The notes beneath the pieces were generated by a model. That model searched no databases. It had not been told where the DNA came from and saw only the letters and a program-made list of their open reading frames with translations. Both the position numbers and the translations under genes were made by a program. This document shows, in pieces, positions 13,311-64,000 of a stretch of DNA of 64,000 bases (position 1 is its first letter; each line of letters opens with the position of its first letter). The DNA is from Nannocystis pusilla (GTDB taxonomy: Bacteria; Myxococcota_A; Polyangia; Nannocystales; Nannocystaceae). The stretch spans positions 3,437,168 through 3,501,167 of the forward strand of contig NZ_JAPNKE010000002.1 of assembly GCF_026626665.1 (NCBI RefSeq), given 5' to 3'.

Positions 13311-13311
13311 C

Positions 13312-26405: not shown

Positions 26406-28111
26406 GTGTTCGGCTCGCTCCCGCCGCCGCCGCGGCGCTACTTGCCCGCGCGCGTGCGCCTCGATCGGCTCGCCGATCTCGAGGCCTGCTACGGCGAGCT
26501 CGGCGCGCGACCGCTGCCGGCCGACGACCCGTGGATCCTCGAGCAATGGCTGCGCGACTGGTCCGAGCTCGAGAGCCACCTCGCCGAGGCGCAGGCGCGG
26601 CGCCAGATCGCCACCAGCTCCAGCGCCGACGACCCCGAGGCCGCGCGCGCCTGGCTCGTCCACGTCGACGTCCTCGGCCCCGCCTGCAAACCGCTGCGCC
26701 ACGGCCTCGCGCGGCGGCTCGTCGAGCACCCGGCCGCAGCTCGCCTCCCGCCCGGCCACGCCTGCGCCCTCGCGGTGCTGCGCAACCAGGCCGACCTCCA
26801 CCGCCCCGCCCTCGTCCCGCTCGAGGCCGCCGAGCAGCACCTGTGCGCCGCCTACGGCCAGCTGCGGGCCGGCATGCGCTTCCACTGGGACGGCGCCGAC
26901 ATTCCGCTCGCCCACGTCGAGCGCAGCGACGACGACCTGACCGTTCGCGACGCGAGGCCGCCTGGCGCACCGTCGCCGCCGAGTTCCGCGCAGTGAAGCC
27001 CGAGCTCGATCACCTGTTCGACCGCCTCCTCGACAACCGCCGGGCCCAGGCCGCCGCCGCCGAGCTGCCCGACTACCGCGCCTATCGCTTCCGCCGCCTC
27101 GACCGCCTCGCCTACGGCCCCGCCGACTGCCTCGCGCTGCACGAGGCCATCGCCGCCGAGTTCGTCCCGCTCGCCGGCCGCGTCCTCCGTCGCCGCGCAG
27201 CCGCGCTCGGCCTCGACGTCCTGCGCCCGTGGGACCTCGGTGCCCTGCCCGGCGGCCCGCTCGTCCCGTTCACCCGCGAGGAGGCGCTGATCGCCGGCTG
27301 CGCCCGCGCCTTCGAGGCGGTCGACCCCGAGTTCGCCCGTCAGTTCTCGCGCCTCGCCGAACATGGCCTTTTGGACCTGATGTCGCGGCCAGGCAAGGCC
27401 GCCGGCGCCTTTCAGGTCCACCTCCACGCCAGCGGCCTCCCCTTCGTGTTCGCGGGCGCCGTCGGCCGCCACGAGGACCTGCTCACCGTCTTGCACGAGG
27501 GCGGCCACGCCTTCCACGCCCTCGCCTGCGCCGGCGACCCGCTGATCTGGAACCGCCACCCGCCGATCGAGTTCTGCGAGGTCGCGGGCATGGGCATGGA
27601 GCTGCTCGCCGCCACCCACCTGGGCGCCTTCTACGACGCCGACACCTGCGCCCGCGCGGCCCGCCACCAGCTCGAGCAGCTCGTCCTGTTCCTCCCGCAC
27701 GCCGCCGCCATCGACGCCTTCCAGCACTGGGTCTACACCCGCCCCGACGAGGCCGGCGATCGTGCGACCCGCGACGCCGCCTGGCTCGCGCAGCACTGGC
27801 GGCTGTGCCCCGGCGTCGACTGGAGCGGCCTCGAGGCCGACCGCGCCGCCTTGTGGCAGCGCCGCCTGCACGTGTTCGAGCTGCCCTTCTACTACATCGA
27901 GTACGCGATCGCCGGCCTCGGCGCGGTCCAGCTGTACCGCCGCGCCCTCGCCGAGCCCGCCGCCGCCGTCGCCGACCTGCGTCGCGCCCTCGCCCTCGGC
28001 GCCCGCGCCCGCCTGCCCGACCTGTTCGCCGCCGCCGGCCTGCACTTCGGGACAGATCGCCACACCGTGCGCCAGGCCGCCGCCGCCTGCCGCGAGCTCC
28101 TCGACCTCTGA
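26406..28111 (+). CDS. M3-family oligoendopeptidase F-like zinc metallopeptidase; frame break ~26950
   Basis: The HExxH motif is LHEGGHAFHAL, with a downstream Glu in EFCEVAGMGMELLA. The N-terminal 180 aa are in the frame of ORF 26406..26996 and the rest in the frame of ORF 26270..28111. Confidence 0.75.
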
Positions 28112-28200
28112 CCTCATATGTCCTTCAGGACATCTTCGGCAGCGCCTGTCCTTCCAGACAGCCCGCGGCAGTCGGCCTGCCGCGAGCGCCTCGACCTGTG
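28112..28200. repeat. palindromic element (GTCCTTCAGGAC; CTGTCCTTCCAGACAG) followed by a ~32-bp imperfect copy of the upstream gene's 3' end
   Basis: The gene tail is gccgcctgccgcgagctcctcgacctctga. The downstream copy is ggcctgccgcgagcgcctcgacctgtga. Confidence 0.7.
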
Positions 28201-28202
28201 AC

Positions 28203-29435
28203 TCACTCGTACGCCGTCACGTACATGTGATACGTCTCGAAGTCGACCGCGCCCGAGGCGAAGATCGTCCCCGCGTCGTCGATCGCCACGTCGACCTCCC
28301 ACGACCCGCTGTCGCAGCTGTGCACCGCCAGCGTCACGCCGGACGGGTCGAGCCGCGCCACCATCCCGCGGAACGGCGGCTCGTTGTTGTACTCGCCGCC
28401 GACCGCGATCTCACCGCTCGCGTTGACCGCGAGGTCGCCGAAGCCCCACATCCCCTCGACGAACGTGTCCCACAGCGGCGTCCCATCCGCCGCGAACTTC
28501 CCGATCTTCACCGCCGACGACCCGATCTCGGCCCCGACCACCACCGCGCCCGCGCCGTCGATCGCCGCGGTACTGAGCACCGAGAGCTCCCACGGGCGCG
28601 TCCACAGCTCCTCGCCGGACGGGTCGAACAACCGGACGCCCTCGTCCCACACCAGCGCCACCATCGCGCCCGCCGAGCCGATCGCCGCCACTTCGAGTTG
28701 CTCCGCGACCTCGAGGTCCCACAGCAGCGTCCCGTCGGCCGCGTGCTTGACCATCCGCGTCCCGTCGCCGACGGCGGCGCGGTCGCTGTACACCGTCGTC
28801 CCGTCGCCCGCGACCGCGATGTCGTAGCCCCACGCGTAGCCCTGATCGCGCGGCCCCAGGTCGCGCTCCCACAGCATCGCTCCGGCCGGGTCGAACTTGC
28901 GCAGCCACTTCCGCGGCGACACCCCGTCCTCGTCGCGGAACATCCCGTAGCCGTTGCCCTCGGCGTCGATGTCCCAGTGGACCGCCCCCGACGGGATCGG
29001 TGTCGTCGCCACCAGCGTCCCCGTCGCGTCGAACTCGCGCGACAGACCGTCGCTGAACACCCGCGCCCGCCCGTCGGCCGCGAGCGACACCTTGCCCGCG
29101 CCGCTCGTCTCCGGATCGACGAACAGCCACGCCCCGCCCTCGCACGCGAAGTCTTCCGGCGTCGAGCCCGAGTCGGTGTCGTGCATGCCCGTCGTCGTCT
29201 CGGTCGTCGCGTCGCCCGGTCCGTCGGTCGTCTCGTCCGGGCCGCCGGTCGTCTCCGCCGCGCTCGTCGTCCCCTCGCTGTCGCTCCCGCCGCCGGTCGT
29301 CCCCTCGCTGTCGCTCCCGCCCGTGGTCGTCCCCGTGCTGACGGTCCCGCCCGTGACCCCCGGGTCCTTCGGATCGCAACCTGTCACTACAGCCATGAAC
29401 CCAAGGACATGTCCAATATACCATGTTCTAATCAT
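28203..29435 (-). CDS. lipoprotein with Thr/Gly-rich linker and beta-propeller-like repeat domain
   Basis: Signal plus lipobox is MIRTWYIGHVLGFMAVVTGC. A GGAGAG SD lies upstream. Repeated motifs are WD/WE...DG...V. The ATG was verified (cat at 29433-29435). Confidence 0.6.
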   Translation of the reverse strand: MIRTWYIGHVLGFMAVVTGCDPKDPGVTGGTVSTGTTTGGSDSEGTTGGGSDSEGTTSAAETTGGPDETTDGPGDATTETTTGMHDTDSGSTPEDFACEGGAWLFVDPETSGAGKVSLAADGRARVFSDGLSREFDATGTLVATTPIPSGAVHWDIDAEGNGYGMFRDEDGVSPRKWLRKFDPAGAMLWERDLGPRDQGYAWGYDIAVAGDGTTVYSDRAAVGDGTRMVKHAADGTLLWDLEVAEQLEVAAIGSAGAMVALVWDEGVRLFDPSGEELWTRPWELSVLSTAAIDGAGAVVVGAEIGSSAVKIGKFAADGTPLWDTFVEGMWGFGDLAVNASGEIAVGGEYNNEPPFRGMVARLDPSGVTLAVHSCDSGSWEVDVAIDDAGTIFASGAVDFETYHMYVTAYE

Positions 29436-36459: not shown

Positions 36460-37378
36460 ATGGGACCGTTCCGCCTCGAGACTCTCACCAGCCGCGACGT
36501 CCGGGACCGCCTCGAACGTCTCGAGCTACCGTTCAATCAATACGGCATGGATCCGTTCGGGATCTCCAAGAAGCACCTCGGCGTCTTCTATTCGATGCTC
36601 GAGGTCTTCTACAAGATACTTCCGGGTGAAGTGCTTCGGCATCGACAACGTGCCGGAGCGCGGCGGCGCGATGCTCGTCGGCAACCACTCCGGCGGTCTG
36701 CCGGTCGACGGCGGCATGGTGCTCGCATCGTTGTTCTTCGCCCGCGACCTCCCGCGCCACGCCACCGGCATGGTCGAGAAGTTCGCCGGCAACTGGCCCT
36801 TCGTGTCCGAGTGGTTCTCGCGCGTCGGTCAGCTCCCCGGCCTGCCCGAGCACGCCTTGCGGCTGCTGCAGGACGGCCGCCTGCTCATGATCTTCCCCGA
36901 GGGCGCGCGCGGCACCGGCAAGCTCTTCAAGGATCGCTACCGCCTGGTCCAGTTCGGCACCGGCTTCATGCGGATCGCCCTGCAGACCGGCGCGCCGATC
37001 GTCCCCTTCGCCTTCATCGGCGGCGAGGAGGCCCTCCCCACCATCTACCACGCCAAGACGCTGGCCAAGATCGTCGGCGCCCCCTACTGGCCGGTCCCAC
37101 CGTACCTCGTGCCGTTCCCGCTGCCGCTCGGCTGCGAGATCCACTACGGCAAGCCGATGCACTTCCCCGGCACCGGCCGCGAGCCCGACGAGGTCATCGA
37201 GGGCTACGTCGAGCAGGTCAAGAGCGTCGTCAAGCTGCTGGTCCTCCGCGGCTGCGCGCTCCACCGCCAGCGCACCGACGGAACTTTCGCACAGGAACCC
37301 GAGGACAGCTCGTCCGGCTCGTCCTCCGCCGCGCCCTCCTCGACCTCCGGCCCGACCGACACCGACTCCGAACCATGA
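36460..37378 (+). CDS. PlsC-type (LPLAT) acyltransferase; frame break ~36620
   Basis: The LPLAT H-box context is MLVGNHSGGLPVDG, and box III is LMIFPEGARG. The N-terminal 55 aa (MGPFRLETLTSRDV...) are in the frame of ORF 36301, the rest in the frame of ORF 36419. Confidence 0.7.
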
Positions 37379-38286
37379 AGATCTTGATCACCGGCATCAA
37401 CGGCGCCCACGCGCGCATGGTCGCCCTGCGCCTGCGCGCCCGCGGCGACGAGATCCTCGGCATCGACCGCCGCCCCTGGCCCGACGCGCCCGAGGGCGTG
37501 CACGTGTTTCAGACCGACGTGCGCAAGCGGCCGGCCGCCGACGTGTTCCGCCAGCACCGGCCCGACGTCGTCATCCACATGGCGACGATCACCCACTTCA
37601 CCGCCAGCGCCGAGGAGCGGCTGCGCATCAACCTCCACGGCACCCGCCTCGTGTTCGAGTACTGCCACGAGTTCGGCGTCAAGCAGGCCGTGTTCGTCGG
37701 CCGCCACACGATCTACGGCGCCGCCCCCGACGCGCCGCTGTACCGCACCGAGGAGGAGCCGCCGCTGGCCGTCTCGACCTTCCCCGAGCTGGCCGACCTG
37801 GTCGCCGCCGACCTGTTCGCCGCCGCCGCGCTGTGGCGCTGGCCCGGGCTCAAGACCGCCGTCCTGCGCATGGTCTACATGCTCGGCCCGACGCACCGCG
37901 GCACCCTCGCCAGCTTCCTCGCCGGCCCGCGGGTGCCGACGATCCTCGGCTTCGATCCGCTCTACCACTTCATGCACGACGAGGACGGCGTCGAGGCGAT
38001 CGTGCGCGCCGTCGATCACCAGCTGAGCGGGATCTACAACGTCGCCGGCCCGCCGCCCGTCCCGCTGTCGACGCTGGCCCGCGGCACCGGCCGCCAGCCG
38101 ATCCCGATCCCCGAGCCGCTCTTCAAGTACAGCGCCGGCCGCTTCGGCCTGCCCTACCTGCCGCCCGGCGCCGTCGCCCACATCAAGCACCCGATCGTCG
38201 TCGACGCCACCGCCTTCCGCCGCGCCACCAACTTCGAGCACAAGCACGACGCCCACGCCGTCATGGTCAGCTTTCGCGAGTCCTGA
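37375..38286 (+). CDS. NAD-dependent epimerase/dehydratase family protein
   Basis: The Rossmann fold is MKILITGINGAHARMVALRL. A Tyr-x3-Lys-type core is retained. The ATG overlaps the upstream TGA. Confidence 0.8.
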   Translation: MKILITGINGAHARMVALRLRARGDEILGIDRRPWPDAPEGVHVFQTDVRKRPAADVFRQHRPDVVIHMATITHFTASAEERLRINLHGTRLVFEYCHEFGVKQAVFVGRHTIYGAAPDAPLYRTEEEPPLAVSTFPELADLVAADLFAAAALWRWPGLKTAVLRMVYMLGPTHRGTLASFLAGPRVPTILGFDPLYHFMHDEDGVEAIVRAVDHQLSGIYNVAGPPPVPLSTLARGTGRQPIPIPEPLFKYSAGRFGLPYLPPGAVAHIKHPIVVDATAFRRATNFEHKHDAHAVMVSFRES

Positions 38287-38340
38287 AGGACATGTCGCGG
38301 AGGACATGTCGGGACAGACATGTCCCTCAGGACCCGCGGT
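38283..38340. repeat. 14-bp-period GGACATGTCS repeat array (3-4 units)
   Basis: tGAAGGACATGTCG cgGAGGACATGTCG ggacAGACATGTCC ctcaGGAC. Confidence 0.7.
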
Positions 38341-39045
38341 AGGTCCCCGGGCGGTAGCGCAGCAGCGCCACCTCGAACGCCTCGAAGTGCTCCGCCAGCA
38401 GCTCGACCCGGCGCACCAGCACCGCCAGCTCGACCGGCGCCAGCCGCGGACCCCGCCCGCCGTGCGCCTGGCCGGCAGCGCAGGGCTGTCCGCCGGGCCG
38501 GCGTCGAGCGCCTCGCCGAGCAGCACCGCCTCGACGTCGTGGGTCGAGATCCCGACGTGGGCGACGAGCTCGCGCTCCTCGGGCCCGAGCTCGCGGACGC
38601 TGCGGATCCAGCTCCACACCCAGGCGTCGATCGCCGCGTCGGCCGGATCGGCGGCCTCGACCGCGAGCCGCAGCGCGTGTCTCTCGGGCCAGCTCGGCCA
38701 CGCGAGGCGGCAGGTGGTCCAGGGCCAGCGCCGCGTCCGCGCCCGCCAGCGCCTGCCGCTCCATCATCGGCAGCGGGCGAGCGAGCACCCCGAGAACGAC
38801 GCGAACGCGATCGTCCCCAGCGTGCTCGCAAAAAACACCAGCTCGAGCGGGTCAAACACCCCACGGATGAGCGCGGTGACGATGACGGCGATCGTCGACA
38901 AGGCCGCCCAGATCGCCAGGATCTTCGCTCGCCGCCGGCGCTCGAGCCGACGCGTCTCGATCGCCGCGGCGAGCCGCTGGTGACGAGCCGTGCGCGTCTG
39001 CGCACGAATGCTTATCGCCGCCTCGTCGCCTCGATCACCTGGCAC
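38327..39045 (-). CDS. hypothetical membrane-anchored protein, reading frame disrupted at least twice
   Basis: The protein sense is readable across three minus-strand ORF fragments (TM helix ILAIWAALSTIAVIVTALI; ...ERQALAGADAALALDHLPPRVAELAR...; ...WIRSVRELGPEERELVAHVGISTHDVEAVLL...). The boundaries are uncertain. Confidence 0.3.
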
Positions 39046-39216
39046 CGACCGCAGCGTAGATCACACTCGCGTCGGCGGCAGTGCCTTGGGTGCCTTCACC
39101 CCCGGGAGTTTCTCCGAGCAACCCCGAACTTCCGTGCTTGCCGCAAGACACGTTAGAATCACTGCGCGCGCCCCGGTCTACGGAGCGTGCCCCTTCCCTC
39201 GCTCGCAGGAGTCTCC

Positions 39217-41798: not shown

Positions 41799-42329
41799 GG
41801 GCTCGCCGCAGGAAAGCACGACGTCTCTGCCCCCGCGGCGCCTGGCTCTGCGTCGAATTCGAAGCAGGGGACCCACGATGAGGGTGAGCAAGCAGGCCCA
41901 ACAGCGGGCGAGCACCCCCGCATCGAACTACCTGGCGATCGCCAACGTGCTCACCACCGGCCGACGCTGACCCTCGCCCACCACAAGACGCTCACGGCGA
42001 GTTCAAGGCTCCCCGAGGCCCATGCGCGCCTCGCCTGACTGCGCCTGCTCCGTCGGAACCCGCGGCGCTCGAAGCCTCCTCCGCTCTGTCGGTTCGCGTC
42101 CGGCCGTGGCCCTCGCCGGTCGGCGCGCAGCGGAACATCGCCTGTCCTCCCGGGATCGCCACCGAGCAAGCGCGAACGGGACGCACCGTCGCGTACGTCG
42201 AGCGCCGCCCTTCGAGGTCCCTGGAGCCGCGGCTTCGGAGGCGCGGCGTGCGTGCGAGGTCGACGTCACGGATCTCGCCTCGCGAACGGGTTCACTGCGG
42301 GCGCGACCCTGGTATGCTCCGCGCCCGCC

Positions 42330-42866
42330 ATGGCCGCCCCACCCGAACCCACACGCGGACCGCGGATCGCCCTCGCAGCGGTGATCGCAGGTCTCAGCCT
42401 CGGCCTCGACCTTTGGAGCAAGGCGTGGGTCTGGAACAACCTGCGAGACCAGGCCGCCTGGAAGGTCAGCGACAAGCTGCTGCACTTCGACTTCGCCTGC
42501 AATCCCGGCTCTGCCTTCGGGTTCCTCAACGACGTCGACTGGGCGCGCTACTTCTTCATCGTCATCACCCTGGCCGCGGTCGGCTACCTCGTCCACCTCG
42601 CGCGGACCTTGCCGACCACCAGCCGGGCCGCCTTCATCGCCATCGGTCTGATCGCCGGCGGCGCCCTCGGCAACCTCCACGACCGCCTGGTCCGGGTCTA
42701 CGCCGGCGACTACTGCGTGGTCGACTTCATCGTCGTCTACCTGTGGGGCGGCAAGACCTGGCCGGCCTTCAACATCGCCGACGCCGTCCTGGTCGCAGGG
42801 GTGCTCCTGTTCCTGCTCGTGCTGCCGCGCACCGAAGCCGCCGCCGACCATCGGCCCTCCGCCTGA
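42330..42866 (+). CDS. lspA: lipoprotein signal peptidase II
   Basis: LspA blocks are NPGSAFGFL, GGALGNLHDRL and FNIADAVL (with the catalytic Asp residues). Confidence 0.85.
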   Translation: MAAPPEPTRGPRIALAAVIAGLSLGLDLWSKAWVWNNLRDQAAWKVSDKLLHFDFACNPGSAFGFLNDVDWARYFFIVITLAAVGYLVHLARTLPTTSRAAFIAIGLIAGGALGNLHDRLVRVYAGDYCVVDFIVVYLWGGKTWPAFNIADAVLVAGVLLFLLVLPRTEAAADHRPSA

Positions 42867-50847: not shown

Positions 50848-51195
50848 ATGGGCCCCCTGCTCGACTACCTGCCGCTCGTCGCAGCCGTCGGGCTCATCGG
50901 GGTCCTCGCCGGCCTGGTCCGCGCCCGGGCGAGGCAGCAAGCCGCGCCCGACGCCGGCGAGGGCTTGGTGCAGCTGCGCCCGCGCCAGCCCGTCGACACC
51001 GGCGGCCTCCTCGCGCTCGCCGGCCTCGGCTTCGCGCTCGCGCTGGCCCTGGTCCTGTTCGCGCCGACCGCCGCGGTCTGTCTGTCCAGCACGACATGTC
51101 CGGAAGGACCTGCCCTTTGGGTCAGCGCCGCCGGCCTCGGTCTGCTGGGCTTGGCGACCGCGATCGCGTGGCCCTCGCTGACCCGCGCGCCATGA
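50848..51195 (+). CDS. small membrane protein (3 TM, hypothetical); contains an in-frame 14-bp-repeat block at 51088-51125
   Basis: The ATG overlaps the upstream TAA. Hydrophobic helices are present. cacGACATGTCC ggaaGGACCTGCCC tttggg encodes ...STTCPEGPALW... Confidence 0.45.
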   Translation: MGPLLDYLPLVAAVGLIGVLAGLVRARARQQAAPDAGEGLVQLRPRQPVDTGGLLALAGLGFALALALVLFAPTAAVCLSSTTCPEGPALWVSAAGLGLLGLATAIAWPSLTRAP

Positions 51196-51289
51196 TCCGC
51201 CCGCGCGCTGCCGCCTCGCCTGCGCCCGCGTCGGCGAGCGGCGACGTCGCGCTGCGCGTCTCGGCGAATGGTCGTGCCCGAAGCGTCGG

Positions 51290-51790
51290 CGACGTCGCTG
51301 TGCCGGACGACATGTCGCGCGAGCTCCAGTCGCAGCTTCGCGACTTCGAGGTTCGTGCGAGCTCCTCGCTCGAGGTCGCGGGGCAGGACTTCCCGCTGCA
51401 CCCGCCCGCTTCGGCCCTGCCAGGCGTCGACGAGCTGTCTGCGAGCTCCTCGCTCGCGGTCGTCTCACCGCCTCTCTTTCTTCGCAGCTCCGAAGCAAGC
51501 GCGAGCACTCGGCTCGAGGTCGCATCGCCGCTCGCACTTCCTCGCAACCTCGACGCAAGCGCGAGCGCCCCGCCCGAGGTCGAATCGCCGCTTCCGTCCG
51601 CTTCGGCCATGCGCGGTCTCGCTGAGACGCTGGCGAGCTCCTCGCCCGATACTGCGTCGCCGCTTCCACTTCTTCGCGCCCTCGAAGCAAACACGAGCAC
51701 CTCGCCTGAGATCGCGTCGGTGGACGTCGCATCGCTACCGTCCACTTCGCTGGTCGCGCACGCGAGCTCGCCGCTTCCGCGTCGCAACCT
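51290..51790. repeat. ~500-bp degenerate tandem repeat (~60-66-bp units rich in GAGCTCCTCGC / CTCGAGGTCGC), Ser/Ala/Pro/Leu-rich in both strands' frames
   Basis: Recurring blocks gcgagctcctcgc...ctcgaggtcgc(a/g)... In the forward frame they give repeats like EASASTRLEVASPLALPRNLD / ASASAPPEVESPLPSAS... Confidence 0.7.
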
Positions 51791-53003
51791 CCTCCGCGCC
51801 GCGACCTCGCCCACCGCGCCTTGCGTCCTCTTCGTCGCGCTCGCGCTCGGCTGCGGCGCGCCGCCGACGGGCGTGCGCCCCGAACCGGGGACCCTCGTGT
51901 TCACGCCGGCGGCGGAGCGTCTCGAGCTGCGGCTCGTGAATCACGGCGCGGCGCCCGTGCCGTTGACGCGGATCCGCTTCGACACCCGCACCCCCGACTG
52001 GGGCGCCTTCTCGATCGAGAACCGCGAGTACCCGCGGGAGATCGCTGCCGGCGGAGCCGTGAGCCTGCGCCTCCGCGTCGACCGCGACCACTTCGATCGC
52101 GCCGGCGCCTCTCGCTCCGGCAGCGCGCGCCTCCTCTTTGCGGCGGGAGAGGCGCCCCAGATCGTCGAGCTCCGCTGGGAGCCGCCCGACCTCGCGAGCG
52201 ATCTGCGGCGCACGGCGATCCGCACCGCCCTGGCGCTCGCGCTCGTCGCGCTGGCGTGGATCTCGACGCGTCGCACCCGGCTGAACTGGACCACCTGGCT
52301 GCCCGTGCTCGCCGCCCTGGCGCTGTTCCCGTTCGGTCCCGGCCTGTGCTTCGACGGCGTCGGCAGCAGCCTCTCGGCGGCGGACGTCGAGCAGTGCGCC
52401 GTGGGTCGGGGCGGTGCTTCGCTGTCGCTGATCGCCGTCGGTGAAGGCTGGCTCGTCTATCTCGTCGCCCTCGTGTTCGCCGGCCTCGGTCGCCTCGTCG
52501 ACCGGGCTGCGCTGGCCCGCCGCCTCGCGTCGCGCGACCTCGCCCTCGCCGCCGCATTCGCCGGTCCGTTGCTGGCCTTTGGGACTCTCGATCCACGGCG
52601 GCTCGTGGGGGAGCAAGCAGCGGGGCTCGTCGGCGGAGCTGCGATCCCTCCTCTTGGGGAATCTTCGTGCAACCCATCGCCGCTGCCGTGGCCCTCGCGG
52701 CCGCGGCCGCGCCGCCGGCAGGACGGCTCGAGCGACTCGCCTTCGCAGCGGCGTTCGTCGCCTGTTTCCTCGGCGGTGGTTTGCCCGCGGCGGCGCTCGC
52801 CGGCAGCGGCCACGGCCTCGTGCTGTTCATCGGCGCAGTCGTGGCGGCGGCGAAGATCGCTGCGGTCGTGTGGTTCGTGCAGCGGCTGCACGCGCCGGCC
52901 ACCGGCTCGCGTGCGCGCTGCTCTCTTCTTTCTCGAGCGGGCCGCGATGCCCCTGGCGATCGCCAATTTGCTGGTGACGTCGGCCTACGCCCTGCTGCGG
53001 TGA
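51720..53003 (+). CDS. hypothetical Tat/lipoprotein-signal protein with extracytoplasmic beta-rich domain and C-terminal multi-TM region; start and one frame break (~52900) uncertain
   Basis: A GTG in frame gives VDVASLPSTSLVAHASSPLPRRNLLRAATSPTAPCVLFVALALGC (RR motif plus lipobox). Several predicted TM helices follow. The last 30 aa are in the frame of the 51096 ORF. Alternatively the gene starts at ATG 51192 and includes the repeat region. Confidence 0.4.
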   Translation: MDVASLPSTSLVAHASSPLPRRNLLRAATSPTAPCVLFVALALGCGAPPTGVRPEPGTLVFTPAAERLELRLVNHGAAPVPLTRIRFDTRTPDWGAFSIENREYPREIAAGGAVSLRLRVDRDHFDRAGASRSGSARLLFAAGEAPQIVELRWEPPDLASDLRRTAIRTALALALVALAWISTRRTRLNWTTWLPVLAALALFPFGPGLCFDGVGSSLSAADVEQCAVGRGGASLSLIAVGEGWLVYLVALVFAGLGRLVDRAALARRLASRDLALAAAFAGPLLAFGTLDPRRLVGEQAAGLVGGAAIPPLGESSCNPSPLPWPSRPRPRRRQDGSSDSPSQRRSSPVSSAVVCPRRRSPAAATASCCSSAQSWRRRRSLRSCGSCSGCTRRPPARVRAALFFLERAAMPLAIANLLVTSAYALLR

Positions 53004-53387
53004 CGCGGGATGCGAGCAGGGTCGGGCGGCCAGGTCCCGGGAGACTCGTGCGGCGCTGCGCACTCAGCGCGCAGCGTGTCCGGTGTCTCCAACGTAGCTT
53101 TTTCCGAAGCTGGTGTTAGCGTGGCCGGCGAAAAGCCTTGACCGCAGGCTTGCCCGGCGAGCGCGGATGCTAGTTCGGACGCCAAACCTCGTAATCCGAG
53201 TGAGACGGGACACACGCGACGCCGTTACGGCCCCACGGACCTGGGCTGAGATGGCGTCGCCGCAGGCTCGCGTGAAGAACCTGTCCCAAAGATATGAGCA
53301 GGCGCGGTATTGTACCCAGACCAACATCGGCGGGAGCTGTCCCTCCGATCGCGGTCGCGGCCCACGTGGGCCACGGGGAGGCGAATA

Positions 53388-56525: not shown

Positions 56526-56651
56526 TAGTACAGCCGCTCCGAAGTTCTCCAGGGGTTTATCGACGGCGGCGGTTCATGGATCCACCTGGATCCATCGCTG
56601 AAGGGGCCGTAGGCCTTGAAATAGAGAGCGCGCGAAAACGATCTCATTGGT

Positions 56652-57758
56652 GTGCCGGGACCGAGAGCGCAGCGACTCCGCCTGGCGCCGTCCGTCCGCA
56701 AGGAGCTGGAGGCGCTGGCGCGGAGTCGTTGCATCGAGGCGCGCCTGGTTCAGCGAGCCAGGATCGTGCTGCTGGCGGCCCAAGGGCTCCCGAACGCCGA
56801 GATTGCTCGGCGAGTGGGCTGCCACGTCGACACCGTGAGGCAGTGGCGCCAGCGCTTCGCCGAGGACGGCCGGGTGAGCACGCTCGCAGATCTGCCGCGC
56901 AGCGGCCGTCCAGCGCGGGTCTCCGCGGCAACGCGGTGCGAGCTCATCAAGCTCGCATGCGACAAGCCGGAAAACCACGGTGTCAAGCACCAGACCACGT
57001 GGACCTACGGGGCCCTGGCGAAGGTGCTGCTGCGCGAGACGGGCGTGAAGCTCAGCGTGTCCGAGGTGGGCAGGATCCTCCGCAACGAGGACTTCAGACC
57101 TCACAAGATGAGGTTGTGGCTGCACAGCCCCGATCCTGAGTTCTGTCCCAAAGTACAGCATATCTGCGACCTCTATCATCACCCGCCGGACGAGGCTCAT
57201 GTCATCTGCGTCGACGAGAAGACCGGCATGCAAGCACTCGGACGCCGGTTTCCGACCAAGCTTCCGGCCCCTGGACGGGCCGGTCGCTTCGAGTTCGAGT
57301 ACATCCGACGTGGTACGTGGTGCCTGTTCGGCGCCTTCGATGTTCGCACCGGCGAGCTGTTCGGCGAGTGCAAGGCAGGGCGCGAAGCCAAGGACCTCGT
57401 CGCATTCATGGAGGGCCTGGCGCGCAAGTACCCGACCGGCGACGTGTACGTCGTCTGGGACAACCTCAACATCCACTACGATGGTCGAGAGGAGCGCTGG
57501 GCCCGCTTCAACAAGCGTCACGGCGGCCGGTTCCACTTCGTCTACACGCCGCTGCACGCGTCGTGGGTCAACCAGATCGAGATCTGGTTCTCGCTGCTCC
57601 AGCGTCGCGTCCTGCGCCACGCCGACTTCCCCGACGCCGACGCGTTGCTTCGCGCCGTGAGGGGCTTCATCCGGCACTGGAACCGCAAGGAGGCCCACCC
57701 GTTCAACTGGACCTTCCGCGGCCACTTCGTCCAGAATGAGCGGCGACTCGCCTCATGA
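56652..57758 (+). CDS. IS630-family transposase (HTH + DDE_3)
   Basis: The N-terminal HTH is LLAAQGLPNAEIARRVGCHVDTVRQW. The DDE domain has ICVDEKTGMQ...GDVYVVWDNLNIH...NQIEIWFSLLQRRVL. 368 aa, intact. Confidence 0.9.
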   Translation: MPGPRAQRLRLAPSVRKELEALARSRCIEARLVQRARIVLLAAQGLPNAEIARRVGCHVDTVRQWRQRFAEDGRVSTLADLPRSGRPARVSAATRCELIKLACDKPENHGVKHQTTWTYGALAKVLLRETGVKLSVSEVGRILRNEDFRPHKMRLWLHSPDPEFCPKVQHICDLYHHPPDEAHVICVDEKTGMQALGRRFPTKLPAPGRAGRFEFEYIRRGTWCLFGAFDVRTGELFGECKAGREAKDLVAFMEGLARKYPTGDVYVVWDNLNIHYDGREERWARFNKRHGGRFHFVYTPLHASWVNQIEIWFSLLQRRVLRHADFPDADALLRAVRGFIRHWNRKEAHPFNWTFRGHFVQNERRLAS

Positions 57759-58078
57759 GCCGCCCTCGAACCACCGCCCGCCGCGCCGTCCCCGACACGG
57801 ACGACGACCTTCGCGCCGTCGAACAGTTCTTTCGCCGTCGTCCAAACCTCGCGCACATCCGCGTCCGCCACCGCGGGGCGCTCATCACCCTCGAGTCCGG
57901 TCCCTCAAACGACCCTATCCCGCACGCTCGCCTGCGCCGCGTGGCCGGCCAGATCTGGCAGCTTGAGATGGCCACCCACACGGGCCGCTGGCAACCGACT
58001 CCCCTCCGCGCCCCCCGCGACGCACTGCTCGAGGCGCTCGTCGCGGACTTCGGGTGGGTCCTCACGCCACAGGCCTAA
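57755..58078 (+). CDS. IS-internal accessory ORF (107 aa, hypothetical)
   Basis: The ATG overlaps the transposase TGA (ATGA). It lies inside the TIR-bounded element. Confidence 0.45.
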   Translation: MSRPRTTARRAVPDTDDDLRAVEQFFRRRPNLAHIRVRHRGALITLESGPSNDPIPHARLRRVAGQIWQLEMATHTGRWQPTPLRAPRDALLEALVADFGWVLTPQA

Positions 58079-58111
58079 CAACCCTCGAAGAACTTCGGGG
58101 CGGCTGTACTA

Positions 58112-58376: not shown

Positions 58377-58642
58377 TCAGGACGCCGCGGCCTGCTTCTC
58401 TTGCACCGTCTTGTGCAGCAGGTCGACGAGCTCGTCGATGTTCGTCAGCTTGTTGAGCTCGGCGCGGGGATCTTCACCTTGAGCTCGCGCATGCTGCAGG
58501 AGACGACCTCGACGATGTCGAGGCTGTTGGCCCCGAGGTCCTTCATCGACTTGGCGGGGTCGACCTGGGCCGCATCGATCCCTTCGACGGTGTCCACGAG
58601 GTGGCGCTTGACGACGGCCAAGACATCATCGCGGGTGCTCAT
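58377..58642 (-). CDS. acyl carrier protein (discrete ACP); 1-nt frame break near 58462
   Basis: The phosphopantetheine site is LGANSLDIVEV. The C-terminal 30 aa (RAELNKLTNIDELVDLLHKTVQEKQAAAS*) read only after a 1-nt shift in a CCCCGCGCC run. Confidence 0.8.
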
Positions 58643-59519
58643 TCTCGGTTCTCCTTGGTGGGCGCGGTGCAGGTTGCCCGCAGCGAATCTCGCAGGAAGC
58701 GAAGGTCAAAACTCAGCCCGTGGCGCTCGCGCGCCGAAAACAGGCGAACGACGTTGTCGGCGAAACCGAGGCCCCTGTCCAGTAGCAGAATCTGCCCCTT
58801 GACGCCGTCCATGAGGCCGCTGCAGAGGGCCAGCGCCGCGGCCGCGACCTCGTCGGGGTCGATGAACCAGCCTTCCGAGTAGTACTTCTTGCAGAACGGC
58901 ACGAAGTCGGGCCCGAAGGTGGCCTCCAGCGATGCAGTCTCGACCGGGTTCGCGCGCAGGATGTTGATGCGAACATCCTCACTGAGCAGATCTGCCGTGA
59001 GGTAGCGACAGAAGGTCTCCATCACGGTCTTGCTCGCGGCCACGAAGTCGTAGCCCGGGAGGAAGTACTCAGGCCCGCGCGACGACATTCCCACCGCGTA
59101 GCGGGCCAGCGGCCGAAGGTCTCGCGGATGGCTTGCAGGTAGCCGACGAACGGCCACGCGCTGTAGCCGAGGCTGCGCAGGAAGCTCTTCTTGTCGAGGT
59201 CCTCGTGCGACTTGCTGACGTGGGCGAACGACACGTTGCTGATCAGCGCGAACACGGCGTCGTGGTCGCGCTTGACCGCCTCCATCAGCGCCTCGGTGTC
59301 CTCGTCCTGCGACGCGTCGGCCTCGACGATCGTCGGCGCCGGCGCGCCCGCGGCTTCGAACCGGGCCCGCAGCTCGTCCTCGTCGGCCGAGCCCCAGCGG
59401 TGCGTCAGGTACACGTGCGCGCCGTACTTGCCGAACAGCAGGCCGGTCGCCAGGCCGATGCCCGCCGTCCCGCCGGTGACGATGATGGCCTTGCCCTTGA
59501 GGTCGTTGCGGAGGATCAC
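58639..59519 (-). CDS. short-chain dehydrogenase/reductase (SDR) paralog B; frame break ~59100
   Basis: The GTG start has an AGGAAGGAG SD. The NAD(P) fold is IIVTGGTAGIGLATG. It is 60% or more identical in blocks to the upstream paralog. It reads across minus ORFs 59022..60266 and 58639..59157. Confidence 0.7.
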
Positions 59520-60331
59520 GCCGGAGCTCCTTCCTTGTCGCTGCCGCCGACGAGCCGCGGCCCGAGCGTGGCGACGTTGTCGACGAACGCCGCGCCGCGG
59601 TCGAGCGTCAGCACTTGCCCGCCCATCGCGTCGAACAGCCCGCTGCACAGCGCGAGGGTCGTGTCGGCGACCTCGTCGACGGTGCACGCGAACTCGGGGA
59701 ACTTGCTCGCCAGCTCGCGCTGCTGGGCGGCGAACATCTGCTCGTAGCTCTCGGTCATGACCTGGCGGGTGCGCAGGGCGTTGACGATGCAGCCGTGCTC
59801 GTACAAGTGCGTGCTCATGTAGCGCACGAACGTCTCGAGCACCGCCTTGGCCACCGCCACGTAGTCGTAGCCGGGGTAGTGCGTGTCGGGCCCGTCGGAC
59901 GACATCGCCAGCGCGTAGCGGGGGTAGCGGCCGAACGCGGCGTGCAGCGCCTGCAGGTAGCCGACGAACGGCCAGCTCGAGTACTCGAGGCTCTTGTACA
60001 GCGCGCGCCGGGTGTGCTTCTCCGGCCCCTCGCCGCGCTGGACCACGCAGACGTTGCTGATGAACGCCCACACGCCGTCGCACTCCTCCTTGAGCCGCGC
60101 GGTCAGCTTGTCGGTGTCCTCCTCGCGCGACGCGTCGGCCTCGATCACCAGCGGCGCCGGGCCCCCGGCGGCGATGAAGCGGGCCTTCAGCGCGTCCTCG
60201 TCGGCCGAGCCCCAGCGGTGCGTCAGCACCGTGCGCGCGCCCTGGCGCCCGAACGCGAGCGCGCACGCGAGGCCGATGCCGCGCGTCCCGCCCGTGATCA
60301 AGACGACCCTGTCCTTGAAGTCATTGAGCAA
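59516..60331 (-). CDS. short-chain dehydrogenase/reductase (SDR) paralog A
   Basis: VVLITGGTRGIGLACALAF plus a YxxxK context. 271 aa, intact. The TGA overlaps the downstream GTG. Confidence 0.8.
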   Translation of the reverse strand: MLNDFKDRVVLITGGTRGIGLACALAFGRQGARTVLTHRWGSADEDALKARFIAAGGPAPLVIEADASREEDTDKLTARLKEECDGVWAFISNVCVVQRGEGPEKHTRRALYKSLEYSSWPFVGYLQALHAAFGRYPRYALAMSSDGPDTHYPGYDYVAVAKAVLETFVRYMSTHLYEHGCIVNALRTRQVMTESYEQMFAAQQRELASKFPEFACTVDEVADTTLALCSGLFDAMGGQVLTLDRGAAFVDNVATLGPRLVGGSDKEGAPA

Positions 60332-60334
60332 GCG

Positions 60335-61110
60335 TCATCCTCCCTGGCCTGGCCCGTAGTTCGTGCGGATCCGCGCCACCGTCTCCGGGTCGGCGAAGCA
60401 TACCTCGTGCATCATCGACTCGACCGTGCGCGCCTCCTCGAAGGCCCGTCGCCGCGGCAACGCCAGCGCACGTTTGAGCAACAGCAGCGCAGCCCGCGGC
60501 TTGTCGGCGATCCGCGCCGCCATGTCGAGCGCCCGCGGCAGCACCTCGGCGCGCGGCACGACCGCGTTGACCTGGCCGCGCCCCGCCAATGCTCCCCGCG
60601 GAAGTACTGCGAGCCGTACAGCATCTCGGCCCCGACGTACTCGCCGAACGCGAACTGCACGAGGCGCGTCGCGCCCATCCCCGGCGTGAAGCCGAGGTCC
60701 ATGAAGTTGGCGCCGTAGCGGCTCTCGCGGGCCATCACGACCATGTCGCAGGCGAGGCCGAACACCAGGCCGCCGCCGACCGCGGGCCCCGCCATCGCGG
60801 CGATCGTCGGCACCGGCACCTCGAGCAGCGCCCGCGTCAGCAGCAGGTCGTACGGGGCGATCGTGCCGTCGGCGAGGCCGAGCAGGACGTCGCGGTCGCC
60901 GCCGGCGGAGAACACCTCGGGCAGGCCGGCGATCACGACCACGCGCACGTCGGCGCGCCGGCCGAGGTCCTCGAGCGCGCGCGTCAACGTCGCGACGAAC
61001 GCGCGGCCGAACGCGTTCTTGCCGGCCGCGTCGCGCATGGTCAGCACGGCCACGCCGTCGCGCTCGAGCGTCACCTCGACGAGGCTGTCTGTTTGGACAT
61101 GCGCGTTCAT
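60335..61110 (-). CDS. enoyl-CoA hydratase/isomerase-family protein (ECH, crotonase fold), second of tandem pair; frame break ~60585
   Basis: Crotonase segments are VVVIAGLPEVFSAGGD and AAMAGPAVGGGLVFGLACDMVV. The C-terminal 80 aa are in the frame of minus ORF 60335..60589. Confidence 0.75.
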
Positions 61111-61862
61111 TCCTGTCCTTTCAGACTGACGAACCACGGCGGCGCCTGGCCCTCGGCCAGCAGGGCCGCCAGCGCCGCCCGCAGCTCGGGGTCCTCGAGG
61201 TCGGCCGCGGTCTGGGCCACCCCGCCCTGCCCCGCGGGTCCGGTGATCCGCTTGAGCGTCGCCACCGCCTGCGGGCGCGCGCGCAGCAGCGAGCGCAACA
61301 GCCCGCGCAGCGCCTTGTCCGGGTCGTCCGCGACCGCGTCGACGAGGCCCCACGGCTCGGCCTGGGCCGCGGTCACCAGCTCGCCGGTCAGCGCCAGCCG
61401 CCGGGTCCGCCGCGCGCCGATCCGGGCCTCCAGCGCCGGGAAGATCACCGCCGGCACCAGCCCGTAGCGCAGCTCCGGCAGCGCGAACGTGGCCCCCGGC
61501 GCCGCCACCACAAGGTCGCAGGCGGCCGCGAGGCCGACCCCGCCGCCGCTGGCCGCGCCGGTGACCACCGCGATCGTCGCCAGCTTCGCGCTGGCCAGCA
61601 GCTCGAGGCAGCTGGCGAAGCGCTGCATGGCCTCGCGCATCTGCGCCGACGGGGTCCGCAGCGCCGCCGCGAGGTCCATGCCGGCGCAGAACTCGGGGCC
61701 CTCGCTGGCGATCACCAGCGCGCGCGCCGGACCGGCGACCGCCTGCTCGACCGCCTCGGCCAGCGCGGCGATCCCGTCGGTGTCCAATGCGACATGTCCT
61801 CCGGGACCTGTCCCGAGGAACAGCCGATGAACTAGCTCGCCCTCTTCGCAGCGGACGCGCAC
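61107..61862 (-). CDS. enoyl-CoA hydratase/isomerase-family protein (ECH, crotonase fold), first of tandem pair
   Basis: Crotonase segments are LVIASEGPEFCAGMDL and AVVTGAASGGGVGLAAACDLVVAAP. The stop overlaps the next gene's ATG. GTG start. Confidence 0.75.
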   Translation of the reverse strand: MRVRCEEGELVHRLFLGTGPGGHVALDTDGIAALAEAVEQAVAGPARALVIASEGPEFCAGMDLAAALRTPSAQMREAMQRFASCLELLASAKLATIAVVTGAASGGGVGLAAACDLVVAAPGATFALPELRYGLVPAVIFPALEARIGARRTRRLALTGELVTAAQAEPWGLVDAVADDPDKALRGLLRSLLRARPQAVATLKRITGPAGQGGVAQTAADLEDPELRAALAALLAEGQAPPWFVSLKGQE

Positions 61863-61970
61863 GCGATCACCTCCGGAGTGCTGAGACGATGAAACGAGCG
61901 GCCGGGCCGCACGCCGCCGAGGGGCGGCGCGGCCGGCGTGGCGAGGGACGTGCGCGGCATGGTCGGAGCC

Positions 61971-63212
61971 TCAGGACAGGCGGTACTCCCGCTGGTAGCC
62001 GCGCACCGCGTCGAGCACGAGGCGGCCCTTGCCGGCGTAGGCGCGCTCGTAGAGCCCGCGCAGGCCCGACTGGTCGACCTCGTAGTCGCTCTGGTCGATG
62101 TACGCGGCGCGCTGGCGCTCGAGCGCTTCGTACTCGTCGATGGTGAGCGGCATGCGGCGATCGAGGCCGGCGCCGACGTGCTGACTGGCGACCTGCTCGC
62201 GCGCGCGCTCGCCGACGGTCGCGCGGTAGAACTCGGCGCACGAGCCCGAGCCGTAGGAGAAGATCGAGACCTTGTCGCCCGCGCGCAGCTCGGGGTCGGC
62301 GTCGATGAGGCCGAGCATGGCGATGAAGGTCGCCGAGGTGTACGTGCCGCCGAAGCGCGAGTTGAAGCGCAGCGCCTGCTTCGACTTGCGCTCGAAGTGA
62401 GCCCTGGCCTCGCGCAGCGACATCTCGTGCGGGCCGCGGCGGAGCAGCGCCCGGTGGGCGCGGAAGGTCATGCCGCCGAACGGCACGTGGTAGATGTGGC
62501 GCGCGAACTCGGCGTCGTAGTCGACCATGCCCGAGCGGGCGACGAAGTGGTCGTAGGCGCCCTCGAGCGCGTCGAGGTAGCCGTACAGGCTGGTGTCGGC
62601 GTGGCCGACCTCCTTCGTCGAGGTCGGGCGGTAGGTGTCGAAGATCTCCTGCGTCCAGTAGCCGCAGGTGTCGAGGTCGAGCTCGAGGACGTCGGGCTGG
62701 GCGCTGACCAGCATCGCCGTCGCCGCCGCGCCGAGCACGTACTCCCACGGCTGGCCGAGGTGCACGCGGCTCTGATCGGTGCAGACCACGAGCGCCTTCT
62801 TGCCCGGCGCCGCGCCCGACGCGACCCAGTGAGCCGCCATCATCAGACCGCCGGTGCCGCCGTAGCAGGCGTGCTTGGTCTCGAAATTGCGGCAGTTGGC
62901 CGTGAGCCCGCAGTAGCGCTGCACGTAGGTCGAGATCGGCTTGCCGAAGTCGACCGACGACTCGGTGCCGACGATCACGAGCTCGATGTCCTGGCGGTCC
63001 TCGGGCCGGACGATCTGCAGCGCGGCGTTGACCGCCATCGTCACCGGATCTTCCCACGTCGGGTTGAGCGAGCGCTCGCTGACCCACAGCTCCTCGAGCG
63101 GGTGGCGCGGATCGTGGTCGCGCGCCTCCGCGAGCAGCTTCATGTCGAGCGAGAGCGTGCACGGGTACGCCGTGATCCGCTCGATGCCCACGCGCGGCCG
63201 GTGGTGCGCCAT
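61971..63212 (-). CDS. HMG-CoA synthase family enzyme (PKS beta-branching HMGS-like / MvaS-like)
   Basis: The active-site Cys block is NCRNFETKHACYGGTGGLMMA. The GxSxS-like block is FSYGSGSCAEF. A GAGGGAGGA SD precedes the ATG. 413 aa, intact. Confidence 0.85.
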   Translation of the reverse strand: MAHHRPRVGIERITAYPCTLSLDMKLLAEARDHDPRHPLEELWVSERSLNPTWEDPVTMAVNAALQIVRPEDRQDIELVIVGTESSVDFGKPISTYVQRYCGLTANCRNFETKHACYGGTGGLMMAAHWVASGAAPGKKALVVCTDQSRVHLGQPWEYVLGAAATAMLVSAQPDVLELDLDTCGYWTQEIFDTYRPTSTKEVGHADTSLYGYLDALEGAYDHFVARSGMVDYDAEFARHIYHVPFGGMTFRAHRALLRRGPHEMSLREARAHFERKSKQALRFNSRFGGTYTSATFIAMLGLIDADPELRAGDKVSIFSYGSGSCAEFYRATVGERAREQVASQHVGAGLDRRMPLTIDEYEALERQRAAYIDQSDYEVDQSGLRGLYERAYAGKGRLVLDAVRGYQREYRLS

Positions 63213-63226
63213 CGCCGTCCTCCCTC

Positions 63227-63970
63227 TCAGTACGTCCAGTCGAGGCCGCCCGTGACCGGCACGACCTGACCGTTGATGAAGCTGCCGCCCGTGGCCAGGA
63301 ACAGGACCGTCGCCGCCAGCTCGGCCAGCGTGCCCATGCGCCCCTTCGGCATCGGGCAGTACTGCTGCCAGTAGTCCTTGGCCGCCTGCGGCATGGTCTC
63401 GCGCGTCATGTCGGTGTCGAAGAAGCCCGGCACGACGACGTTGGCGGTGATGCCCTTGCGCCCGTACTCCTTGGCGAGCGCCTGGGTGAAGCCGTGCAGG
63501 CCGGCCTTGCTGGCCGCGTAGTTGGCCTGGCCGGCCGCGCCGTTGTGCTGGATCGACGAGATGTTGACGATCCGCCCGAAGCGCGCCGCCAGCATCGCCG
63601 GCAGGAACGCGCGCACGACGTAGAACGGGCCGTGCAGGTTGGTGGCGAGCACGTCGTGCCACTCCTCGTCGGACATCGAGACCACGAGGTTGGCGCGGTT
63701 GATGCCGGCGCAGTTGACGATCGCCTCGACGCTGTCGAAGTCCTCGAGCACCGCGTCCGCGACCTCGCCGACGCGGTCCGAGCGGCTCACGTCGAGCGCG
63801 TAGCCCTTGACCTTCGCGCCCGGGCGGATCGCCGCCGCCTCGGCCTCGATCTGGCGCGCCGCGTCGTCGTTGCTGCGGTACGCGAACGCGACGTCGTGGC
63901 CGGCGCGCACCGCCTCGAGCACGATGCCGGCGCCGATGCCCCGCGAGCCTCCGGTGACGAAGAAGTTCAT
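63227..63970 (-). CDS. 3-oxoacyl-ACP reductase-like SDR (FabG family)
   Basis: MNFFVTGGSRGIGAGI, NAG, the catalytic YAASKAG and PGFFDTDMT are present. 247 aa. Confidence 0.85.
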   Translation of the reverse strand: MNFFVTGGSRGIGAGIVLEAVRAGHDVAFAYRSNDDAARQIEAEAAAIRPGAKVKGYALDVSRSDRVGEVADAVLEDFDSVEAIVNCAGINRANLVVSMSDEEWHDVLATNLHGPFYVVRAFLPAMLAARFGRIVNISSIQHNGAAGQANYAASKAGLHGFTQALAKEYGRKGITANVVVPGFFDTDMTRETMPQAAKDYWQQYCPMPKGRMGTLAELAATVLFLATGGSFINGQVVPVTGGLDWTY

Positions 63971-64000
63971 GGCGCGGCTCACAGGCTGTTCGGGTCCCAC

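Follow-up and report, generated by a model that had tools for sequence, protein, structure and literature searches.

A polyketide-type beta-branching cassette in a conserved 11-gene operon of Nannocystis pusilla and its predicted role in amino lipid synthesis

The genes described here lie at the edge of a 64,000-nucleotide stretch of DNA from Nannocystis pusilla (NCBI RefSeq assembly GCF_026626665.1, contig NZ_JAPNKE010000002.1, positions 3,437,168 to 3,501,167 of the forward strand), the whole of which is called the window below. A preliminary description, made from the letters of the window, had reported seven co-directional minus-strand genes running from 63970 down to 58377, and had likened them to the beta-branching cassettes of polyketide synthases (PKSs). 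These genes encode a FabG-like ketoreductase (KR), a 3-hydroxy-3-methylglutaryl synthase homologue (HMGS), two crotonase-fold proteins of the enoyl-CoA hydratase type (ECH1 and ECH2), two paralogous short-chain dehydrogenases/reductases (SDRs), named here ER-a and ER-b as putative enoyl reductases (ERs), and a discrete acyl carrier protein (ACP). All seven were recovered at these coordinates with strong family matches (Table 1), and the end of an eighth gene, encoding a ketosynthase (KS), was identified at the border of the window. Comparison with related genomes places them in a conserved 11-gene operon, of which the window holds the 3' two-thirds and whose product is probably an undescribed methyl-branched amino lipid.

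Table 1. Genes of the operon present in the window, followed by two neighbouring features.
Feature	Position	Strand	Supporting match or remark
KS, 3' end (last 6 codons and stop, ...DPNSL)	63979..64000	-	remainder beyond the window
KR, FabG-like 3-oxoacyl-ACP reductase, 247 aa	63227-63970	-	Pfam adh_short_C2, 3e-51
HMGS, 3-hydroxy-3-methylglutaryl-ACP-synthase-type, 413 aa	61971-63212	-	Pfam HMG_CoA_synt_N/C
ECH1, crotonase-fold, dehydratase position, 251 aa	61107-61862	-	Pfam ECH_1, 1.5e-31
ECH2, PksI/CurF-type decarboxylase, 258 aa once one A is restored	60335-61110	-	NCBIfam NF005496
ER-a, FabL/FabI-like SDR, 271 aa	59516-60331	-	Pfam adh_short_C2; FabL and FabI matches
ER-b, paralogue of ER-a, FabL/FabI-like SDR, 271 aa after correction	58706-59519	-	conserved motifs
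Discrete ACP, 88 aa after one C is restored	58377-58642	-	Pfam PP-binding
IS630-family element, complete	56528-58109		transposase 56652-57758, + strand
lspA (signal peptidase II)	42252-42866	+	Peptidase_A8, 3e-30

The genes are closely packed, as the preliminary description had remarked, with 4-nt overlaps at the ECH1/ECH2 and ER-a/ER-b junctions and spacings of 3, 14, about 64 and 108 nt at the others. A ribosome-binding site (GAGAGGGAGGA) lies upstream of HMGS, and a scan for terminators and promoters downstream of the ACP gene found nothing. The G+C content of the window is about 72%. ER-a and KR are identical to the N. pusilla proteins MCY1006900.1 and MCY1006904.1, respectively. The ACYGGT active-site block reported for HMGS was located as HACYGGTGG, with Cys116 as its cysteine, and Glu84, Cys116 and His242 are invariant. 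The terminal 22 nt of the window, in minus-strand frame 1, read WDPNSL followed by a stop codon; this is the C-terminus of the upstream KS and matches that of Pseudenhygromyxa (...RRFDPNSL). In all related loci the KS gene stands directly 5' of the KR gene.

The region beyond position 64000 was read in Pseudenhygromyxa and in five Nannocystis genomes, N. pusilla MIELM, Nannocystis sp. RBIL2, N. punicea, N. exedens and N. radixulma, the latter five with 91-98% nucleotide identity to the window. Upstream of KR, all of them encode a discrete KS, a FabZ/ApeI-like dehydratase (DH), a malonyl-CoA:ACP transacylase (AT) and a class I/II aminotransferase, which belongs to the alpha-oxoamine synthase (AOS) family. 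The complete order is AOS - AT - DH - KS - KR - HMGS - ECH1 - ECH2 - ERa - ERb - ACP. The preliminary description had assigned a KS0 or a PKS megasynthase, if present, to the region beyond 64000; the related genomes have neither there, and instead carry a KS with its catalytic Cys, a FabZ-like DH, the AT and the AOS. Moreover, no modular PKS was found within 10 kb in the five Nannocystis genomes or in the other loci of this type II organisation. The gene content and the PKS-type character of the cassette described earlier were thus borne out, whereas the megasynthase, and a tryptophan signature in the ACP discussed below, were not found.

Among NCBIfam models, the KS of the operon scored highest with the PksF family, at 350 bits, and reached 306 bits with FabF. 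The KS of the Pseudenhygromyxa-group locus L003 (7918-9222) was compared with the cassette ketosynthases of L094 (2745-3962), L098 (2697-4019) and L099 (2633-3973). The KS0s of the thiomarinol, sandarazol and virginiamycin cassettes have the motif GGASAS, and the operon KS has GGACAS; the common GGA(C/S)AS context suggests that the operon enzyme is a Cys-retaining relative of the KS0 lineage. Since the catalytic Cys, both His residues and the Lys are invariant in 64/64 sequences, it may be condensation-competent.

HMGS was compared with two reference sets: the cassettes of thiomarinol (pTML1), Bacillus velezensis bacillaene, sandarazol (pSa001) and Streptomyces virginiae virginiamycin, all from annotated plasmid records, and the MvaS proteins whose genes adjoin that of HMG-CoA reductase in Enterococcus, Melissococcus and Listeria. 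Over its full length, the operon HMGS shares 36-41% identity with TmlH, BaeG, VirC and the sandarazol HMGS (225-266 bits), but it is only 31% identical to MvaS (178-187 bits), with an alignment that ends at residue 364-379. In the PDB, the best match was CurD (270 bits, full length); PksG scored 233 bits and Myxococcus xanthus MvaS 229 bits. A neighbour-joining tree separated MvaS in 200/200 bootstraps and placed the HMGSs of type II context in a clade with 90% support inside the radiation of the PKS cassettes, with the cyanobacterial and Chloroflexota sequences of PKS context as sister group. This bears on the possibility that the genes serve primary isoprenoid- or leucine-type metabolism, with an MvaS and a LiuC-like hydratase acting on CoA thioesters. 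The shared HMG_CoA_synt Pfam domains and the near-equal scores of PksG and the M. xanthus MvaS are compatible with that possibility; however, the score with the bacterial HMG-CoA synthase profile TIGR01835 (255 bits) is under the cutoff of 360, the tree and the truncated alignment set MvaS apart, ECH2 is of PksI type, the operon has its own ACP, AT and KS, and no HMG-CoA reductase or AibA/B gene is found nearby in the N. pusilla and Pseudenhygromyxa loci. A primary metabolism of MvaS type is essentially refuted, and the preference of the preliminary description for the PKS beta-branching type over an MvaS/LiuC pair is supported. As a separate observation, the metagenomic locus L093 (10001-12872) has HMGS, ECH1 and ECH2 only, with no KS, ACP, ER or AOS within 10 kb; its HMGS falls inside the type II-context clade, and it may represent a cassette detached from the operon.

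ECH2 passed the cutoff of the PksI-family profile NF005496 (275 bits, cutoff 215). In the PDB its scores were 158 bits with PksI and 141 bits with CurF, versus 87 bits with generic crotonases; the MMHE His is conserved, and the protein is 41.5% identical to the virginiamycin ECH2. For ECH1, the best NCBIfam match was PRK07112 (121.6 bits, cutoff 250), and the scores with the ECH1s of known cassettes were 79-101 bits, the highest being those with the sandarazol ECH1 (47% identity, 101 bits) and BaeH (99 bits). As in PKS cassettes, ECH1 sits between HMGS and ECH2. The best NCBIfam match of the ACP was PRK07117 (60.7 bits, cutoff 79), the next family reaching 36 bits. Its phosphopantetheine Ser lies in the sequence LGANSLD, and the LGANS-x-D motif and a C-terminal NI(D/G)EL helix are common to the donor ACPs of the virginiamycin, sandarazol and thiomarinol cassettes and, less exactly, to AcpK, so that by its motifs the protein appears to resemble the donor ACPs of PKS cassettes. 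The ACP contains no Trp, and the tryptophan beside the Ser that flags acceptor ACPs, which the preliminary description had named as a feature to look for, is absent.

The remaining enzymes have homologues in fatty acid synthases (FASs). The scores and equivalog cutoffs, in bits, were 237/298 for FabG (KR with the NCBIfam model 3oxo_ACP_reduc, exact cutoff 297.75), 306/494 for FabF, 150/261 for FabD, 92/113 for FabZ, 36/70 for the ACP and 72/328 for FabL, and no FabH was found in the operon. Because KR, DH, AT, ACP and the ERs are homologous to FAS components and yet all score below these cutoffs, they make up a specialised paralogous set and not a housekeeping type II FAS. Both SDRs combine a classical TGxxxGxG motif with a Y-x6-K of the FabI/FabL type. 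In ER-a these read TGGTRGIG and YDYVAVAK and are kept in 36-37/37 sequences; the motifs of ER-b are kept in 57/58. Additionally, eight loci of the group formed by Enhygromyxa, Plesiocystis and Pseudenhygromyxa (L003 at 12878-14608, L018, L024, L028-L031 and L038) encode ERa and ERb as a single fusion protein of about 576 aa, a "Rosetta-stone" arrangement that suggests that the two act as a pair. The preliminary description had suggested that the two SDRs might act on the branched intermediate as reductases, and the FabI/FabL-type Y-x6-K motif fits this suggestion.

The AOS, which is usually the first gene of the operon, matched the NCBIfam models bioF (317 bits), a Kbl-related family (306 bits) and Spt (284 bits, cutoff 640). 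Its closest relatives of solved structure are serine palmitoyltransferase (SPT; 238 bits), ThAOS (237 bits) and the cysteate-C-fatty acyltransferase CapB (232 bits), scores that do not discriminate between amino acid substrates. A role in biotin synthesis (BioF with pimeloyl-ACP) was considered, as bioF was the top NCBIfam match, and was rejected: the score is below the cutoff, no bioA, bioD or bioB gene lies nearby, and the ECH2 decarboxylase would strip the carboxylate that a dicarboxylate route requires. No thioesterase was found in the operon.

A scan with one genome per species returned 80 loci, and 82 loci were fetched in total. The type II context was observed in 67/82, from at least eight phyla. 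The hosts include Nannocystis, Enhygromyxa, Plesiocystis, Pseudenhygromyxa and other Myxococcota, Planctomycetota (Phycisphaeraceae), Armatimonadota, Nitrospinota, Acidobacteriota (Vicinamibacterales and Terriglobia), Eisenbacteria and several unclassified metagenome-assembled genomes. Among the 38 loci with full flanks, DH, KS, KR, HMGS and ER are present in all 38, ECH2 and ACP in 37, ECH1 in 36 and AT in 35; the AOS was detected in 27, or in 31 when weaker matches are counted. A second or multidomain KS occurs nowhere among the type II-context loci, save for one discrete extra KS in L078, and the loci of PKS context (Nostoc, Chloroflexota and Acaryochloridaceae) all contain several KS domains. 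Gene content, family assignments, catalytic residues and synteny, together with the purifying selection described below and the absence of a modular PKS, are direct observations.

The distribution of the operon is also relevant to another reading of the cassette, namely that it acts in trans on a modular PKS (trans-AT or cis-AT) located beyond the window or elsewhere in the genome. HMGS, ECH2 and ACP are indeed of PKS-cassette type, Nannocystis genomes are abundant in PKS clusters, and in one related contig, L092, a fragment of a type I PKS is found at a distance of about 6 kb. Nevertheless, such a PKS is missing from the 10-kb surroundings mentioned above, the operon is kept in PKS-poor phyla, and the cassette is constantly accompanied by a discrete KS, DH, KR, ERs and AT, of which KR, DH and ER would be superfluous to a trans-acting cassette; in addition, the KS keeps its Cys, unlike canonical KS0s. 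We regard a trans-acting role as quite unlikely.

It is important to mention that three genes of the operon are frame-broken in the window. Deletions of 1 nt were located at about 60589 in ECH2 (a missing A), at about 59105 and 58711 in ER-b, and at about 58469 in the ACP gene (a missing C); after restoration of its bases, the true C-terminus of ER-b is ...RERHGLSF. Four single-base frameshifts within 2.2 kb, with an IS630-family element about 270 nt downstream of the ACP gene, could be taken as signs of a decaying, non-functional cluster that this strain is losing. The comparison with other sequences speaks for a different cause. The Logan short-read contig L001 is 100% identical to the window over 3110 nt apart from carrying the missing A, and its ECH2 is intact with 258 aa; the metagenomic contigs L088-L090, 99.2% identical to the window, have all the missing bases, and so do the five Nannocystis genomes. 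With respect to L088-L090 the window differs by deletions only, and further ones affect intergenic DNA (58341 and 58210) and a neighbouring gene (53103). The corrected ECH2 and ACP are exact proteins of other assemblies (the ACP in 5-7 other contigs). Moreover, the dN/dS ratios calculated against N. punicea, N. exedens and N. radixulma are 0.05-0.35 for all seven genes and 0.05-0.24 for those with frameshifts. A sister N. pusilla assembly with comparable split genes was produced from Nanopore reads with Flye and medaka, and related Nannocystis assemblies are likewise of the Nanopore/Flye type (PMC12224551). Because near-identical short-read contigs hold the missing bases and dN/dS is low, the frameshifts are assembly errors and not gene decay, and loss of the cassette in this strain was rejected as very unlikely.

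The IS630-family element is complete: its termini are inverted repeats of 23 nt (TAGTACAGCCGC[T/C]CCGAAGTTCT), and the TA target is duplicated. The element lies outside the operon and is missing at this site in eight related sequences (the five Nannocystis genomes and the three near-identical metagenomic contigs). It is a strain-specific insertion, and a role in the cluster was rejected.

Compared with the contigs that are 99-100% identical, the window has lost about one base in every kilobase, and most of these losses fall in short homopolymers. Many other genes of the window are probably split artificially; long stretches without a clean open reading frame of high GC3 are at about 913-4127, 26996-28203, 37378-39187 and 51195-53310. 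In N. pusilla MIELM, for which 14,925 genes were reported in the assembly paper, ECH1 and ECH2 are annotated as a single protein of 508 aa (L002, 11350-12876), and truncation or splitting affects the genes for KS, AOS, ER-b and the epimerase. These split and merged genes fit uncorrected indels of long reads, and caution is therefore needed over fusions or losses read from such assemblies.

Taken together, the branching cassette, the FAS-like enzymes and the SPT-like enzyme, with no megasynthase, point to a methyl-branched amino lipid as the probable product. We favour, with moderate confidence, a self-contained system of type II enzymes in which a beta-methyl-branched acyl-ACP would be assembled and then released by condensation with an amino acid. 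In the proposed route, AT would load malonate onto the single dedicated ACP, and the Cys-His-His KS would generate acetyl-ACP by decarboxylation and extend the chain by condensation, with ordinary reductive cycles carried out by KR, the FabZ-like DH and one of the ERs. At one or more beta-keto stages, HMGS would add acetyl-ACP; dehydration by ECH1 and decarboxylation by ECH2 would then give a 3-methyl-enoyl-ACP, and its saturation by the second ER would leave a beta-methyl branch. The likely release step is a Claisen condensation of the acyl chain with an amino acid by the SPT-like AOS, which would yield a methyl-branched 2-amino-3-keto lipid resembling a sphingoid base. A stronger version can also be considered, in which KS and the HMGS cassette iterate on one ACP, with one ER serving the unbranched and the other the 3-methyl-enoyl intermediates, and the SPT-like enzyme turns the resulting multi-methyl-branched chains into a new class of sphingoid bases; the operon would then be a widespread route to isoprenoid-like lipids that is independent of mevalonate. 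This version we hold to be rather improbable.

Several points weigh against the preferred route to an amino lipid. The window does not include AOS, AT, DH or most of KS, and their presence is read from genomes of other strains with 94-98% nucleotide identity. The AOS does not reach any of the equivalog cutoffs for Spt, BioF or Kbl. Among PDB structures, ECH1 scores 100 bits with the best generic crotonase and only 67 with PksH; as the cassette ECH1s come no closer than that generic crotonase, the assignment of ECH1 leans mainly on its position. The operon has a single ACP, which lacks the acceptor Trp flag, although the route calls for a donor and an acceptor role. The substrate order and the division of labour between the ERs are predictions, as are the length of the chain, how many branches it has, the amino acid used and the final product. 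Finally, the AOS was not found within +/-6.5-10 kb in 7-11 of the 38 full loci, and it is possibly not obligatory.

This last point favours a further alternative, in which the operon would supply isovaleryl-ACP or another short iso-acyl-ACP as primer to the general synthesis of iso-fatty acids for bulk lipids, with the AOS only loosely associated. It would be the ACP-bound counterpart of the MvaS-LiuC-AibAB pathway by which myxobacteria form isovaleryl-CoA. By the established chemistry of such cassettes, HMGS, ECH1, ECH2 and an ER acting on acetoacetyl-ACP would yield isovaleryl-ACP, and iso-fatty acids are typically abundant in the host phyla. Nonetheless, a private KS, KR, DH, AT and ACP, all below the housekeeping cutoffs, argue for an orthogonal pathway; the operon has no FabH-like enzyme or transacylase that could pass the primer on, and the AOS is present in 27-31 of the 38 loci, mostly in first place. 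We consider the supply of iso-primers an unlikely general function, although it is possible for the loci without an AOS.

Several described systems share parts of the operon. The PKS HMGS cassettes (AcpK/PksC/PksF/PksG/PksH/PksI of bacillaene, CurB-F of curacin, and those of thiomarinol, virginiamycin and sandarazol) have the same HMGS-ECH1-ECH2 order, a GANS donor-type ACP and an AT, and their KSs share the local GGA(C/S)AS sequence with the operon KS, which has Cys where the cassette KS0s have Ser. In contrast to them, the operon has no megasynthase and no Trp-flagged acceptor ACP, is conserved as one unit over many phyla, and adds a KR, a FabZ-like DH, two FabL-like ERs and the AOS. The closest analogue of the predicted release step is SgaAB of Pseudomonas fluorescens MYb115, in which an iterative type I PKS and an SPT-like enzyme produce sphinganine (10.1101/2024.02.06.579051); fungal PKS/AOS pairs of the Fum8 type are a further analogue. 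Both systems combine a dedicated FAS-like synthase with an SPT-like AOS, which in the operon is predicted to release an amino lipid, but the SgaAB synthase is a single multidomain PKS, whereas the operon encodes discrete type II proteins with a beta-branching cassette. In bacterial ceramide synthesis, Spt acts together with an acyltransferase, bCerS, and an NDUFA9-like reductase, CerR (PMC11087976). With this Caulobacter pathway the operon shares a dedicated ACP, and its AOS is SPT-like; the GNAT and NAD-dependent reductase genes adjacent to it in marine Nannocystaceae are candidate counterparts of the other two, for N-acylation and reduction. The acyl chains of the Caulobacter pathway, however, come from housekeeping synthesis, and an HMGS cassette is absent from it.

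Two other comparisons concern the chemistry of the branch and the discrete nature of the enzymes. The alternative isovaleryl-CoA route of myxobacteria (MvaS, LiuC, AibA/B and AibC) follows the same logic: acetoacetyl and acetyl units are joined to HMG, and dehydration, decarboxylation and reduction then lead to an iso-branch. That route uses CoA thioesters, a synthase of the MvaS clade and a decarboxylase like glutaconate-CoA-transferase, whereas the operon is of ACP type with a PksI-type decarboxylase. The fun cluster of Lactobacillus reuteri and clusters of the granadaene type are type II FAS-like systems in which a homologue of 8-amino-7-oxononanoate synthase (AONS) is predicted to join the chain to an amino acid. 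They resemble the operon in their discrete KS, KR, AT and ACP and their AONS-family enzyme, but they have no ER and no HMGS cassette, and their predicted products are polyenes, pigments of Firmicutes.

The flanking open reading frames of the 67 type II-context loci were clustered all against all. The only recurrent neighbours outside the core were a NAD-dependent epimerase-family (extended-SDR) reductase (15/38) and a GNAT protein (12/38; 409 aa, Acetyltransf_6, 23.6 bits), found mainly in marine Nannocystaceae, where they could convert the AOS product into a ceramide-like lipid. In the Nannocystis operon the reductase adjoins but the GNAT does not. The remaining clusters were discarded as antisense artefacts of high-GC DNA. 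In three distant lineages, FAD-dependent proteins of the amine-oxidase/phytoene-desaturase type stand beside the operon (L003, 17948-19525; L084, 849-2960; L086, 14649-16172). In L084 there are AurF-like and AAT-family genes as well, and L085 encodes a phosphopantetheinyl transferase, MMPL transporters and MlaA; these FAD proteins and extra genes could serve tailoring or lipid export.

Of the tandem lspA genes noted earlier in the window, the one at 42252-42866 was confirmed (Table 1). Between it and the cassette lie genes for a chorismate-binding enzyme, a CDP-alcohol phosphatidyltransferase, a flavoprotein of the aspartate-oxidase/succinate-dehydrogenase type, CarD, a DUF4388 protein and a cobalamin adenosyltransferase. 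As these housekeeping genes intervene, a self-resistance link of the myxovirescin type was rejected, and the preliminary description had rightly left lspA unlinked to the cassette.

HMGS beta-branching cassettes are known as accessories of modular PKSs. The parts of the operon belong to known families, and what is new is the architecture, a beta-branching cassette in a free-standing type II system with an SPT-like terminator. No description of the operon was found in the open-access literature, and a survey of conserved biosynthetic gene clusters of Myxococcota lists for Nannocystis only geosmin, pyrronazol B, 2-methylisoborneol and an uncharacterised phenazine-type cluster.

The Cys-retaining KS may be a condensation-competent relative of KS0, which bears on the origin of the PKS cassettes. 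If the prediction is true, the operon would also be of use in engineering, as a compact collection of discrete enzymes with which methyl branches could be introduced into products derived from fatty acids. Were the mevalonate-independent version true, its products would be membrane lipids, possibly of the outer membrane, of Myxococcota, Planctomycetota, Acidobacteriota and Nitrospinota, and possible unrecognised environmental biomarkers. For the preferred route, the finding would mean that abundant soil and marine bacteria make an unrecognised family of acetate-derived methyl-branched amino lipids.

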